Assembly: GCA_951406725.2 (NCBI GenBank)
Contig: OX597817.1
Span: forward strand, 126,170,001 to 126,234,000
DNA: 64,000 nucleotides
Origin: Octopus vulgaris
Taxonomy: Eukaryota
Direction of reading: 5' to 3'
The translations under genes and the position numbers were made by a program. Shown here in pieces: positions 27,535 to 39,194 of the stretch. The notes below the pieces were generated by a model, which saw nothing but the letters and a program-made list of their open reading frames with translations, was not told where the DNA came from and ran no database searches. Position 1 is the first letter of the stretch, and each line of letters opens with the position of its first letter.

Positions 27535-28003
27535 GATATGAGTGCATTTGAGTGTATATTTATGAATATATCTGCGTGTGTGCATGTGTATAGATATATG
27601 CGTGTAGATATTCATATGCCTGTAGATATGTATACTTACATATATAATATATATGTATACACACATATATATACACACACATACATTTATAGGCATGTAT
27701 ATATGTATACATATAGGTGTTAATACATATATATATATATATATATATATATATATAGAGAGAGAGAGAGAGAGAGAGAGAGAGATAGAAAGAAAGAAAG
27801 AAAGAGGTAATTGTGTCAATAAGACACAAAGGTGTCAGGCAATGCTGAGTAAGTGCTATCGACAGACTATAGTTAAGCTCCAGGTGATTATGCGAATGAG
27901 GAGTCCAATGTAGGTCATATATCAGCACGTGTATATATGAAAACACTTTTTAGAATGAGATAAAAATCCATGGCTGTGAAAGATTTTAGAGCATTTATAA
28001 ATA

Positions 28004-28053
28004 GGTCTTACATCTGTTTCTGGGATATTTTATATATCCCTTCATCGGTGACC
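28004..28053 (-). ncRNA. Minimal type I hammerhead-ribozyme-like motif
   Basis: Minus strand reads GGTCA-CCGATGA-A-GGGATAT-ATAAA-ATATCCC-A-GAAA-CAGATG-TA-AGACC: stem I GGTC/GACC, 7-bp stem II, GUA triplet; core is CCGAUGA rather than CUGAUGA. Confidence 0.7.
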
Positions 28054-28391
28054 GTGTGGGGAAAATCGTTAAGCAATAGTTATTTTAGATAAGATATGAA
28101 ATTGAGAGTAAAGTGGAGGAATGACAATAGACGTGAGATATGCAGGGATATTGCATCAGTAGATCTATTATTTAGGCTGAATGGTATACGTATAAGATTC
28201 CAGTGCCTTGTAAGCTCCAGTATCATTTAAAATTGGTCATTCCAAGTATAGAGTTTGTACACGGTATTATAGAATCAAGGGTTTTACTTTAAATAAAACC
28301 CTGCGTAACTCACGTCTATTTTCATTCCTCCACTTCACTCACCATTCCATATCTTATCTAAAATAAGTATTGCTTAACCATTTTCTCACAC

Positions 28392-28441
28392 CATCTCCGA
28401 TGACGGGATATATAAAATATCCTGGAAACATCTGTAATACC
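28392..28441 (+). ncRNA. Minimal hammerhead-like motif (mirror copy, decayed stem I)
   Basis: CATCT-CCGATGA-C-GGGATAT-ATAAA-ATATCCT-G-GAAA-CATCTG-TA-ATACC. Confidence 0.6.
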
Positions 28442-34422: not shown

Positions 34423-35599
34423 ATATATATATATATATATATATATATATATATATATATGCGTATGTCCATATACAGTTGTATGGTTGTTTTCTTAACT
34501 TCTATATAAATGGGTATTTCTTAGCATTTGTACTATATATATATATAGTCTATAAATATATTAGCTTATATGAATACATGCATATATATATATAATTACA
34601 TTGTATGTATATATATATGCATTAGTGTGTGTGTTTATGAGTATGCGCATGTGTGTATATATAACTGTATATAATTGTACAAGAATTTCCCGTATATGAT
34701 TGTGTCTGTAGGTGCATATGTTCATGTATTTATATTCATGTATATTTATACTTACATTATTTGTATATGCATATGCTTTTGCTTGTATTTGGATATATGA
34801 GTGTTTTTATGTAGGTGTGAAAGTTGTTCTGTTCTCAATACAGTTCATTTTGAGAGAAATATATTTTGAGGTATTTGCCCTTTTAACCCAGTTTGAAAAT
34901 AATAGTTCACACTATTTCGTTGGTTTAATCTTTACACCTCCAGGTGTCTGTTCCCTGCTGAATTCATTACATTAACATATAATATTTTTTATATGTCCAT
35001 TTATATAAATTCAAGAACTCTATATTTAGTAAAACTCCTTTGCTTTCTCTCCAATCACTTCCTGTCTTTTGTGAAAATTCACGCCGCTCATTTCCCTGAA
35101 GTTAGAAAATGAAACAAAATATATTTATTACTCATATTCAATTTAATGGCCATACCAAGCTAAATATAACTTGTGTCGGTCTACCATATAAAGGGTAAAT
35201 TTTGCATGTATACTTTGTTTTGAAGAAGTAGTATCGCAAATGTTTCTGGTGATCTGATGAGCTAACTTTTCTGATCTGCACTAATGTCTTTATATACAAT
35301 TGTAAATTGTGCACTAAGCATATTTGCTGAGACGTATGAAATAATTTACTATAACGTGAAATTATTATTATATGATAAAGGCTGCGAAATGGGCATAGTC
35401 TTAAAGATAAATGGTTTAATATATATGTGGGTGTATACACACACACACACACATGTATATATATATATATATATTTATATATATATATATATATTTTTAT
35501 ATATATATATATATATATATTTATATATATATGTATTATATCTACTAAATATTGGGTGTGTGTTGCATCACAACAACAAAAGTAATTTTTTCTGAGAGA

Positions 35600-36508
35600 C
35601 ATTACTGCATGGAATGAAGCACTCTGACATGGGGGATGCAGAAGTACACGTATCAAAGGATACCATAGTGCGAAAAGACAGAAGGGAAAGGAGACGTGGT
35701 GGAGTTGCAGCATGTGTCCGTGAAGACCTCACACCCCAGGTGTTACTGTCATATTCAAATTCTGTATGTGCCATTCTAATTGTATACACAAGACAACACA
35801 ATATTGTAATATGCTACAAATATCGCCCACTGTATGCTTCAAACCACATAGGCAAGCTTAGAGATTGCCTCAAAAGAATCAAAGAAATCCTCGTGAAACT
35901 GGAAAACCATGCGAGCGTATACGTATGGGTGATATCAACTTCCCCAATGTCTAATCCCGAAGGCCTCATGCTCTCAGGAATGCCTCATTGCAAACAAGCA
36001 CAGGTGAGGTCTCTGCTCAACCTCACTAATGCCCAATTCATGGAGCAGGTTCTGCTCATACTAACTTGGGTGAATAACATTTTGGATCTGTGCTTCTCGA
36101 ATACTACGTTATGTAGTAATATATACCTGGAAGATCCTGGAAGAAATAGTGCCAAATTTTAGCATTGAAAGCTATACAACTGGTGAAATGGTTCGACACT
36201 GCAAAGAGCCAAAGATCTCAGCAATGCCATCACGCTTCAAGACCAGTCAGAGCAACTACCTATGTTTCAGAGGACCACAACTATCTAATATTCTCCTAAA
36301 GGGCCTGGGATATAGGTGTTTCAAAACAAAATATGACATCTTGTTGAGAGCCTCACATGAACCTAACTGCGGCAAGAGGTGCAAATGAAAGCAGCGACAT
36401 CAAACGCTCTTATTCACCGAATGACACATATTAGAGGACGCTCTCAATACTAGTAGTGTAGCAAAACGACAGTAGCCCAGCATGGTCACGGCTTATGAGC
36501 TGAAACTA
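35600..36508 (+). mobile_element. CR1-group LINE remnant: APE endonuclease joined directly to the ORF2 C-terminus and 3' UTR
   Basis: RKDRRERRRGGVA, YRP and NNILDLCF endonuclease motifs, then at ~36100 RYVVIYTWKILEEIVPNF...FRGPQL.NIL and tail CCCAGCATGGTCACGGCTTATGAGCTGAAACTA. Confidence 0.85.
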
Positions 36509-38821
36509 GTAATATATATATATATATATATATATATATATATATATATGTGTGTGTGTGTGTGTGTGTGTGTGTGTGTGTGTGTATGTGTGTGTATGTA
36601 TACAAATAATCGATTTTTGAGTTCGATTCTTACTGAGGTTAGTTCCTCAATTTTCACTCAATATTTTAAAATTAGTCACTTCAAATCGGAAAATAGATAT
36701 CATTATAATATATATTACATATATCGTTATCACACACGCATATATAATAAATATATATATATATATATATATATATATATATATGCACATATGCCAAAAT
36801 ATAGACATGCATGCACACATTCAGACGCGTGCGCGCACGCACACATACTCACACTCATTTACAAACACAAATGTGTGTTTTTGTATTTAAACAAAATTTT
36901 GTCTAACATCCTTGGTATACAGAGAAATTAAGTAAGTGATCCCTGCAGCGTGGTGATATCAAGGAATAAAAACAAAAATATTTCTTGTATCACCTTTCAT
37001 AAATGTTTATCTACTATGTAATATTTTCGGAAAAATGTCATGTTTCTCATATAAATATGATAATAAAGAGCTCGTAGGAATATTTTGTTATCTCCAGGCC
37101 ATACTTGCGTATACACACACACACACACAGACAGAGTTGATATTAGCTTCTATTACAGATGTATTAGTACGGACTGTTGTATTATATGACAAGTGACTGC
37201 AGGTGCTATTAACTAAATCCACGCTACCAACATTACTGTATATTCAGCAAACATTGATAACACAGCATACATTTTTTAAGATTGATAGAAATAAACGATG
37301 TACAGTGAGCAAGGAAATACATGGAGCACTACCCATCAGTCATGAAACACATGCAAGCCAACTATAATATTGTCTCACAAATGAAATGATTTATGTTCAC
37401 CTATAAAATATTGTCCAGTCTATCGTTTCCGCCTTTCTAATTCTTTAACTCTCTAGGTTATTGTTTCCCTTTTGGCCTCACACATCTTTTCATTTCTTCG
37501 CTTTTGTATTACTCCCATTCTCCCTTTCTCCAAATTTCATAGACTATTGTTGTTTTCCACTTATTCTGTTTTGTTTATTATTCATCAAGTATTATACTAG
37601 GTTACACTCCTGTAAATCAGTCATATTTATAATATGAAGAAAATATTGTTTGCTATTTCTGTAAACTTTCTATTTGTGCTATTTTTGCTAGCAGTCTCTG
37701 CATTTCGTAATTTCTTTTTAGTTCCGTCATCTTTACCAGGGTGACTTATGTGAGAATCAAACAAGTAGTGTGAGACACATGACAGGGTTTAAACTCTATT
37801 TCATGAAGGTGTTTTATGACCAAAGTGTAACTTGAACTGAAGTGTTATATTTCTATTTCAATTTGCTTTTGATTATATTAACTACGATTTTCAGAAGCCT
37901 GACAGTAATGAATCTTCGTCGTATAGATCGAAAGGAAGGACCAAAGAATTAATTTCCTCGTCAAAGATAATACAAAGAAAGACAAACAGCAAAACAAAAC
38001 AAAAAAACGTGGGCATGTGACTTAAGGAGATTCAATTCCATACACAGAGCGAAAATTGTTTCTTGACTCTATTGCTAAAGAACACCTTATGAATTCTTAA
38101 AGTAAGCATTGTCTGATAGGAGAGTGATATAAATTCATATTAAAATTGTTAAATCCGTACGAATATAACCACTATGGCATAGGGTAATGTGCAAAGAATG
38201 AAAAAAAAAAACACCCCCAAAATATTAGAAGCTAAAAATAATTTTATTACCGTGCGTATAGATTGAAACTATAACCTCCGACTGACCAAATTTGCGATAT
38301 AACCTTTTACCAAATAAAAAAACAAACACACACATACACACACACACACACACACATATATATATATATATGCATACACATACATACATACATACATACA
38401 CGTACAAAAAAGATATTACACGCAGACATAAATATAAATGAATCCCTGAATGATAATCACGTGTATTACGTTACTTTTGTAACGTATATGCTAAGTATGC
38501 CATTTTCCCATCACCAACGACACTGATCAAAAATGAGTTAAATGGTATTTGATCAATCAACACAATTATTTGCATCTGAATTTAAGTGGTAGTGCCGTAA
38601 CAATCTACAGCTGTATTAGCCTCAGACATATCTTCAGGCAAAATCAATGTGTCATATTGTGTGCTTGCGCGTCTATTATGTATATGACAATGATGTATAT
38701 CTTGTATTAAATGTTCATTCCAACCGACTGTCTTTGGTAAGTTTCTATTGATATCCTCTCCCGATAAACAATATATATATATATATATATATAATTGTTT
38801 CAAAAATATAAAGATATGCAG

Positions 38822-39194
38822 GAATGGAGCTGAACGACGAATTAGCAGAATTTCTTTATTTTCGACATATGTTTCGAAGGATGCATATTCCTAATTGCGA
38901 AGGAATAAGGTGTACATTATGCCGCTTTCATCAGGAAAAGCAAGGAACTTATGTCAACATCAAAATGCACAAAAAACTTTTAGATGATTGCTCACATGGA
39001 GCCCATCGCTATAGGCTCCGTGTGAGCAATCATCAAAAAGTTTTTGTGCATTTTGATGTTGACATAAGTTCCTTGATTTTCCTGATGAAAGCGGCATAAT
39101 GTACTCCTTATTCCTTCGCAATTAGGAATATGCACCCTTCGAAACACATGTCGAAAATAAAGAAATTTTGCTAATTCGTCGTTCGGCTCCATTC
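38822..39194. mobile_element. Fold-back element 4: ~182-bp arms around a 10-nt loop
   Basis: 38822-39003 vs 39014-39194, about 9 differences by eye; the mirror ORFs 38824-39099 and 38992-39192 in the track reflect this palindrome. Confidence 0.95.
39066..39168 (+). ncRNA. Type I hammerhead ribozyme motif (mirror copy at 38848-38950 on -)
   Basis: ATTTTC-CTGATGA(39082-88)-AAGCGGCATA...TATGCACCCTTC-GAAA(39141-44)-CACATG-TC-GAAAAT. Perfect 6-bp stem I with imperfect extension, GUC triplet, predicted cut after 39152; the minus copy has palindromic CATATG in stem III. Confidence 0.78.

Follow-up and report, generated by a model that had tools for sequence, protein, structure and literature searches.

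A 64-kb stretch of Octopus vulgaris DNA, here called the window, contains long palindromes that carry hammerhead ribozyme motifs, which raises the question of whether such palindromes are themselves mobile units or are left behind when other elements integrate. Self-BLAST of the 64 kb and a uniform palindrome scan both found four long fold-backs and no more, in agreement with the first-pass annotation, which had placed four within 11 kb beside TA-rich tracts. By self-BLAST, palindrome A (27932-28517) is 76% self-complementary, B (30608-31053) 90%, C (33422-34310/34428) 98% and D (38804-39212) 93%, and each is adjoined on at least one side by a (TA)n or TA-rich tract. Leftward of the A and B palindromes there are ~130-160 nt more of element sequence (the "tail"), starting at ~27803 and ~30450, respectively.

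Density was assessed by scanning 40 arbitrary 10-kb stretches for palindromes with arms of at least 100 nt and spacers of at most 500 nt. The 28 palindromes found give an expectation of 4.5 per 64 kb, compared with four observed in the window, so that long palindromes are no denser here than in arbitrary stretches and are an ordinary feature of this genome; the families behind A, B, C and D have hundreds to thousands of copies each. The presence of all four inside 11.3 kb has a p value of 0.009, unadjusted and from a test picked post hoc. Since a loose hammerhead pattern was present in only 3 of the 28 background palindromes, hammerhead-bearing palindromes are locally enriched.

Hammerhead motifs and family membership

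A strict type I hammerhead descriptor matched A(-), B(+) and C(-), compared with 0.01 matches per shuffled 64 kb (100 shuffles), and inspection found the motif also in B(-), D(-), D(+) and A(+). The motifs noted at first pass are real; their number was too low, as all four palindromes, rather than three, carry one. On the minus strand of A (28004..28053) the core is CCGAUGA, a U4C variant, with a predicted cut after 28009 (GUA), and the second copy (28392..28441, plus strand) has a decayed stem I. The minus-strand motif of B (30669..30752) has an intact core, a 55-nt stem II region and a predicted cut after ~30674 (GUA), and its second copy (30910..30992, plus strand) is missing one core base. 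C has a complete minus-strand motif (33608..33718) with a 5-bp stem I, an 81-nt stem II region and a predicted cut after 33613 (GUU), and on the plus strand only the 3′ part of a hammerhead. In D, the minus-strand (38859..38939, GUC) and plus-strand (39077..39157) copies have both lost the same 2 nt where stem II begins, the stem II region measuring 52 nt in both window arms, whereas the further 24 D rows that were parsed have 54 nt; A(+), B(+) and both arms of D are thus partly decayed. An Rfam scan of the window, a check suggested in the first-pass annotation, returned no hammerhead family at E≤1 and only microsatellite-driven miRNA matches. Among genomic copies, the hammerhead cores are kept within each family. 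The hammerhead parser used missed one further family, X, which has a short stem II.

Every family has two fixed 3′ ends, termed "long" and "short". Judged from their sequence, A, B and D are 5′-truncated 3′ ends of Hydra-clade Penelope-like retrotransposons (PLEs) belonging to three families, each inserted head-to-head. In A (27803..28515, locus L061), the left arm (minus strand) has the long end and the right arm (plus strand) the short end; the tail (27803..27935, minus strand), which spans the interval from the short to the long 3′ end, is in the left arm only. B (30450..31053, locus L031) consists of a long-end left arm (minus strand, 30450-30854) and a short-end right arm (plus strand, 30854-31053), again with the tail (30450..30607, minus strand) in the left arm only; in the whole B element the tail is located before the ORF start. 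D (38795..39218, locus L001) is a relative of B whose right arm is without a tail and adjoins a repeat fragment, given which the tail was likely lost secondarily. No general tail structure was found across A-D by folding z scores (-2.3 for D, -2.4 for C, ~0 for A and B). An 18-mer of the A family has 3216 exact matches, two B-family 23-mers have 472 and 965, and a D-family 24-mer has 995.

B copies elsewhere continue upstream into reverse transcriptase (RT) and GIY-YIG coding sequence, and locus L121 is a whole B element, organised as pLTR-ORF-pLTR, in which this coding sequence is spread over three frames. The D copies L003, L009, L012 and L021 likewise have an ORF of RT and GIY-YIG coding sequence upstream, and relatives of A, 73% identical, are located 3′ of a Hydra-type ORF; no linked ORF was found for the A copies L155-L157. 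The arrangement that defines EN+ PLEs, a single ORF (RT with a C-terminal GIY-YIG) upstream of the pLTR, was found for B, D and the A relatives. RT and GIY-YIG were assigned by motifs and homologues (743 at E≤1e-10, mostly of ~700 aa); Pfam recognised neither domain in six ORF pieces. These findings bear out the earlier proposals of Penelope-like pLTR hammerheads, inverted pLTR segments and several families, and answer the question, raised with them, of whether arm copies are attached to ORFs. The further proposal of ORF-less, pLTR-only, retrozyme-like units holds for C and fails for the ORF-linked A, B and D. For these three, identity as non-LTR retrozymes (ORF-less tandem units) was rejected, the upstream sequence being 3′ UTR and ORF. 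A MITE or fold-back DNA transposon, which would have fixed terminal inverted repeats and a uniform internal junction, was also rejected, given unequal (long/short) ends and variable junctions.

The proteins have DKT, no CCHH, and CxxC and CxH around conserved E and N residues, and the targets are (TA)n, as in the Hydra clade of C-terminal EN+ PLEs according to the available parts of Craig et al. 2021 (PMC8557442), whose section 11 supplied the motif definitions and whose File S1 includes Hydra-1_Obim. Also shared with that clade are a pLTR with a type I hammerhead, direct or inverted (seen in L121 and in the hammerhead cores), and the 5′ truncation, inverted copy at the 5′ end and tail at one end that A, B and D all show. 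By the same parts of that paper, the elements here differ in their tails (72-170 nt versus 30-40), in the 54-81 nt stem II regions of the B, C and D hammerheads, and, in B and D, in an absent CxCx5C linker, an Asn-rich insert and greater length (B ~3.8 kb); B also has RWL in the place of RWK. The linker is present in the A relatives and, with one-residue variation, in family X, which has RWK and is represented in the genome by young, intact copies with a 727-aa open frame.

Pairing of long and short ends

Head-to-head insertions pair one long with one short end almost without exception. Among 89 junctions of A, B and D, 70 were long+short, two short+short and two long+long, and 15 had a non-canonical end; for C, 13 of 25 were clearly long+short, none was clearly like+like and 12 were set aside. 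A held-out D set (n = 27) comprised 15 long+short, no like+like, one non-canonical and 11 one-armed insertions, and a blind test on family X gave 13/13 long+short where both ends were in view (14 fetched), making 28/28 for the held-out sets together. Pooled over five families (A, B, C, D and X), 115 head-to-head insertions have a canonical end on both arms; 111 of these are long+short and four like+like (p = 2e-28 against a 50% expectation), window element D being among the four exceptions. Long and short ends are roughly equally frequent among X copies, and 14/43 B insertions show one arm only. Assembly or read-chimera artefacts can practically be dismissed as the source of these structures: fold-back chimeras do arise in some sequencing libraries, but they would duplicate flanking DNA symmetrically and exactly, whereas the arms here are 2-24% different and, across more than 100 loci, terminate at one or other of two positions specific to the family.

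In 40 of the 70 long+short insertions of A, B and D, neither arm is nested in the other (21 have no overlap and in 19 the short arm extends further 5′). Junctions that vary between copies, together with many two-armed insertions lacking arm overlap, do not agree with the "fold-back element" first put forward as the mobile unit. Twin target-primed reverse transcription, with two fixed start sites on a single RNA, accounts best for the pairing rule. The GIY-YIG domain would nick both target strands; of the two 3′-OH ends, one would prime from the long (downstream) start site and its partner from the short (upstream) site. Both cDNAs would halt at variable points and be end-joined with an overlap of a few nt, a palindrome arising only where they overlap. 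The four palindromes are 5′-truncated head-to-head copies of hammerhead-bearing 3′ ends (of PLEs in A, B and D, of an ORF-less unit in C), probably produced when a (TA)n target was cut on both strands and one RNA was reverse transcribed from both cut ends, each at its own fixed start site. AT microhomology with the target, 4-6 nt long, is seen at the ends of A-D and is absent from the short end of X.

For PAc, an anole PLE (Poseidon of Anolis carolinensis; Frangieh et al. 2024, PMC11167929), the protein was shown in vitro to cut the target on both strands, to extend each of them and to initiate reverse transcription at two sites, one on either side of the tail; in the available text of that paper it likewise uses AT-rich targets and inserts independently of hammerhead cleavage, belongs to a different clade from the families here, and shows no strand difference in start-site use, a one-long-one-short rule not being described. 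Dual minimal hammerheads on opposite strands, 100-700 bp apart, have been ascribed to truncated PLEs in Schistosoma (Cervera and De la Pena 2014, PMC4209133), which is the same observation as here, with a palindromic stem III for dimer activity; stem II is longer here, and end pairing was not analysed there. A ribozyme-cut mark was absent from B insertions, in which 2 of 18 arm starts between +40 and +110 fell at +73 to +76 (cut +73/+74). L1 twin priming also uses both target strands as cDNA primers and yields an inverted 5′ piece; there the second primer anneals internally, at positions that vary, and gives pieces without overlap, unlike the start sites here, which are both fixed near the 3′ end and allow the overlap that gives palindromes. 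Published work already describes inverted pLTRs, tails and hammerhead pairs on opposite strands; added here are the long+short pairing across five families and the mostly non-nested arms. No statement of the pairing rule was found in the titles, abstract openings and text sections covered by the literature search.

One long and one short end with near-identical arms would also be predicted if a single first-strand cDNA (or antisense template) folded back and self-primed its second strand, the endonuclease resolved the second end at the short site, and later asymmetric deletions at the unstable centre made the arms unequal. Proposals in the available parts of two papers derive inverted Penelope structures from self-priming (PMC3846280) and the tail from resolution by the endonuclease (PMC8557442). 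Near-symmetric junctions (10/70 within 10 nt for A, B and D; 4/13 within ~60 nt for X) exceed the expectation from two independent stops, which counts against twin priming and fits folding back. The arms are mutually nearest sequences in 11/14 X insertions, and both arms of window D carry one private deletion; such similarity could alternatively come from one source locus or gene conversion. Folding back would, however, require later deletion in 40/70 A, B and D cases and at most young-family junctions, those of C being symmetric in only 1/25, and near-perfect palindromes of B and D survive to 3-9% arm divergence. Many second arms are no more than a tiny piece at the terminus (9-19 nt in L004, L014, L037, L047 and L060; 28-57 nt in five C insertions), which would follow from priming at that end, and the anole RT, as noted, initiates at both sites in vitro. 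Self-priming is therefore considered rather unlikely, and twin priming from two fixed sites is preferred. The by-product bears on how PLEs finish integration and why the inverted repeats that remain have a tail on one side; near-absolute long+short pairing with mostly non-nested arms favours one integration model, which is directly testable.

The palindrome itself had been proposed as an ORF-less, MITE- or retrozyme-like mobile unit acting as a co-transcriptional ribozyme/antisense switch, in keeping with the retained hammerhead cores, the motif on both strands of A, B and D, and the ORF-less C. Such a switch is unlikely because the antisense arm of a head-to-head pair is always transcribed before the ribozyme, on either strand. 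A folding model gave 0.0 expected intra-ribozyme pairs when the hammerhead is just completed (A, B and D, either strand), and in an equilibrium model the antisense arm pairs with 41-82 ribozyme nucleotides. The 1-2 bp stem III depends on another sense copy, decay has affected several of the copies in the window, the A relatives, B and D are ORF-attached, and junction position varies per insertion, indicating that palindromes are not copied as units. A mobile switch is thus largely refuted and very improbable; as products of twin priming, the palindromes would be dead by-products, their ribozyme tied up by pairing with the antisense arm.

Tandem hammerhead units without an ORF

In element C (33436..34422, locus L091), a tandem hammerhead unit of 616 nt without an ORF is inserted head-to-head; the left arm (minus strand) has more than one unit and terminates at the short end, and the right arm (plus strand, 34070-34422) terminates at the long end. 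A C-family 26-mer has 434 exact matches, arrays have up to 13 units of 616 or ~644 nt, and the hammerhead core is identical in 30/30 rows. C can be classed as a young retrozyme-type unit with a PLE-like insertion footprint. It resembles metazoan non-LTR retrozymes, as described in the available parts of PMC7229834 and bioRxiv 10.64898/2026.07.22.740005, in being ORF-less, low in GC and tandem, in having a single type I hammerhead in each unit, and in a circular monomer that is predicted to fold well (z -4.5 to -5.8); it differs from those descriptions in bearing the PLE footprint (two fixed ends, inversion) directly. That a tandem hammerhead unit without an ORF bears this footprint supports, directly and at the genomic level, the view that Penelope enzymes move retrozymes. 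C, a protein-less tandem repeat, likely borrows Penelope-like enzymes, and units of its type likely travel on the PLE machinery as multimeric or circular RNA.

The short end of C is bracketed by a 9-bp complementarity (34250..34365, plus strand) that is conserved and is shared by several related families, E and F among them. Covariation analysis of this helix found 54/54 cells paired, with three G-U changes and no two-sided change, the 5′ strand being forced by the search pattern. The chances seem evenly balanced that PLEs integrate by asymmetric twin priming (one RNP and one RNA, with a different fixed start site per cut strand) and that ORF-less 540-640-nt hammerhead circles (C, E and F) hijack it via the conserved RNA helix bracketing the upstream start site. 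The intact 727-aa-frame copies of family X are available in the genome for testing both parts.

No upstream ORF that could mark an autonomous partner for C was found in 30 motif loci or in 30 family F loci, and no similarity was detected between C and family X. An RT remnant next to L093 was rejected as a partner, being a separate insertion. One unrelated endonuclease remnant is present, on the opposite strand, in the family F loci. No sequence record carrying C was labelled as RNA. In contigs of three putative RNA runs (two studies) the C unit is covered and its end joined to its start, as tandem DNA would also give.

The C arrays might instead be local satellites, grown from a solo pLTR by unequal crossover without mobilisation of multimers. 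Units of L252 have a recurring higher-order variant pattern, and local amplification is suggested in the available part of bioRxiv 10.64898/2026.07.22.740005. Examined for signs of a circular monomer template, the arrays gave a mixed picture, private variants being common to units in L110 and L100 but L252 showing its higher-order pattern. Growth in place is nevertheless quite doubtful as the whole explanation, since the two fixed ends, the (TA)n flanks and the head-to-head junctions all recur in C arrays, several insertions have more than one unit on both arms, and copies on different chromosomes are 99-100% identical. With transport on PLE machinery as the preferred reading, local growth may lengthen C arrays after insertion.

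Hammerhead-bearing palindromes in the window

Self-comparison of the window, whose DNA is AT-rich and microsatellite-dense (genome size 2.8 Gb), revealed four long fold-backs, elements A (27932-28517), B (30608-31053), C (33422-34428) and D (38804-39212), all within the interval marked by the first-pass annotation. A strict type I hammerhead descriptor matched A(-), B(+) and C(-), against 0.01 matches per shuffled window, and the remaining hammerhead copies of A-D were recognised by eye. The four palindromes reported earlier stand; the earlier assignment of a hammerhead to three of them is corrected, since all four carry the motif. 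The Rfam check proposed for these motifs left them undetected. Decay was seen in stem I of A(+), in one core base of B(+) and as a 2-nt deletion common to both D arms. Arbitrary stretches contained 28 long palindromes per 400 kb, giving an expectation of 4.5 per 64 kb against four in the window; the close spacing of the four has p=0.009, computed after the fact, and hammerheads were present in 3/28 background palindromes. Tight spacing and hammerhead content show some local enrichment. In the arbitrary stretches (L256-L295) this amounts to about one long palindrome per 14 kb, most of unidentified families, and these could yield long double-stranded RNA if transcribed.

The first-pass annotation had also proposed that transcripts of the window's fold-backs could switch co-transcriptionally between ribozyme and antisense duplex. 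Whichever strand is read, the antisense arm is transcribed first, and in an equilibrium folding model halted at completion of the hammerhead, A, B and D kept 0.0 intra-ribozyme pairs, compared with 11-20 for the arm alone, which argues against a switch in these elements. The C(-) hammerhead retains part of its fold because the opposite arm covers the ribozyme only partly. The original observation is confirmed, and its interpretation is partly supported.

Families A, B and D and Penelope-like coding sequence

Every arm of A-D is a member of a dispersed family, exact short patterns matching the genome 3216 times for A, 472 and 965 times for B, 434 for C and 995 for D. Upstream of the arm sequence, copies of B and D have first a 3' UTR and then a reading frame for a GIY-YIG-type endonuclease plus reverse transcriptase (RT). 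One locus, L121, is arranged as pLTR-ORF-pLTR over about 3.8 kb (pLTR, the hammerhead-bearing terminal repeat of a Penelope-like element, PLE), with the B tail, the sequence between the short and long 3' ends, immediately 5' of the ORF start. An ORF of similar type lies ~1 kb upstream of A relatives (73% identity); none of the closest A copies examined extends to an ORF. RT homologues numbered 743 at E<=1e-10, mostly of about 700 aa, with one in Argonauta, and Pfam recognised 0/6 coding pieces. For A, B and D the motifs match the Hydra clade (DKT, no CCHH, CxxC and CxH, and (TA)n targets), as defined in the accessible text of PMC8557442, whose File S1 catalogues a Hydra family of Octopus bimaculoides; unlike the clade as described in that text, B and D are without the CxCx5C linker and have an Asn-rich insert. 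Family X (L418-L431, e.g. G000:C4:134760500-134770400) is a young Hydra-type PLE family with many intact 727-aa frames, a 72-nt tail, a compact hammerhead and kilobase-scale palindromes whose arms are 99.4-99.9% identical.

Pairing of long and short 3' ends

Paired hammerheads, one on each strand and separated by 100-700 bp, have been attributed to truncated PLEs (PMC4209133), and inverted 5'-truncated PLE copies often bear a tail at one end (PMC8557442), as far as the accessible portions of these papers describe them. Two fixed 3' ends, one short and one long, were found in each family here, with a tail of about 120-170 nt between, and arms are invariably joined 5' to 5' at a variable point. 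Of 89 A/B/D junctions, 70 joined a long to a short end, 2 were short+short, 2 long+long and 15 had a non-canonical end. For C, 13 of 25 were clearly long+short and 10 had a non-canonical end; the automatic calls at L105 (long+short) and L176 (long+long) were not counted, as the arm there continues into the next unit. A held-out D set comprised 27 fresh loci picked in order along the genome: 15 were long+short, none was like+like, 1 had a non-canonical end and 11 had a single arm. X gave long+short in 13/13 of those kilobase-scale inverted pairs (n=14) with both ends in view. Pooled, long+short exceeded like+like by 111 to 4 (p=2e-28), and the held-out sets alone gave 28/28 (p=4e-9). This pairing is a mechanistic regularity; it was not found stated in the openly accessible literature covered.

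Of the 70 A/B/D long+short insertions, 21 have non-overlapping arms; in 19 it is the short arm and in 20 the long one that reaches further 5', and in 10 the arms have a common start. Since arms overlap in only part of the insertions, palindromes are the overlapping subset. Arms were mutually nearest sequences in 11/14 X insertions and lay far under the family median distance in 9/9 B pairs measured; in the old family A, arm-to-arm distance was often not below the median. Some seemingly solo copies bear a second arm of 9-19 nt, and 14/43 B insertions have none.

Two-sided priming is favoured as the probable mechanism: both strands of the (TA)n target would be cut and each 3'-OH would prime cDNA, giving exactly the head-to-head geometry observed, with the two insertion ends using different start sites, likely on one RNA. 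An anole PLE protein, predicted to be a dimer, cleaves and extends both target strands, with RT starting at two tail-bounding sites and hammerhead cleavage dispensable (PMC11167929); to this the present rule would add different sites for the two ends. The main rival, fold-back self-priming followed by central deletion (described in the accessible part of PMC3846280), also accounts for long+short pairing and for the near-symmetric junctions (10/70; X, 4/13), but it requires deletions in most young copies (C junctions were symmetric in 1/25) and does not predict the tiny terminal arms, and we consider it unlikely. No spike of 5' ends was seen at the ribozyme cut (2/18).

ORF-less tandem families and other repeats

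Tandem retrozymes are regarded as PLE derivatives in the accessible text of PMC7229834 and bioRxiv 10.64898/2026.07.22.740005. Family C is an ORF-less unit of 616 nt (variant about 644 nt) whose arrays reach 13 units, with copies 99-100% identical between chromosomes. As a circle, the monomer has a stronger fold than its shuffles (z -5.8 and -4.5), compared with z 0.05, -0.05 and -1.0 for equal-length A, B and D. In 6/6 parsed families stem I pairs although its sequence differs, and stem III is a palindrome or near-palindrome. In a 13-unit C array (L252-L253, G000:C1:120152000-120166000) a higher-order pattern of unit variants recurs.

A motif 40-80 nt upstream of the short end of C occurs 2304 times in the genome and marks related families, including E and F, each with its own hammerhead. 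E (L327:1727-3541; L335-L339) is a second young ORF-less tandem family with a 594-596-nt unit, a 70-nt stem II region, a GUC site and head-to-head insertions as in C. F (L358-L387) is older, with a period of about 540-570 nt; among the matches listed, 15/18 of its partner arms terminate at the short end, 2/18 at the long end and 1/18 elsewhere. An autonomous partner for C and its relatives was looked for at 30 motif loci, at 30 family F loci and by comparison with X, and not found. Nine nucleotides of the motif are complementary to a tail stretch in 6/6 aligned copies, where three changes are of G-U type and none is two-sided; this putative pairing may mark the priming site.

Within the window, a repeat at 31075-31385 directly adjoins B, and its 85%-identical 3' fragment at 39216-39385 sits where the tail of D would be; we take both to be SINE-like. 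Segments 19498-20099 (-) and 46276-46668 (-) are presumably broken mariner-like transposase fragments, and an open stretch with a GIY-YIG-like motif at 55160-55756 (-) is, we assume, possibly a remnant of another PLE. Decayed LINE-like endonuclease and RT-end fragments at 35596-36388 and 39732-40175 are 79-80% alike in inverted orientation, and 49750-50070 is a tandem repeat with a period of about 70 nt and copies about 90% identical.
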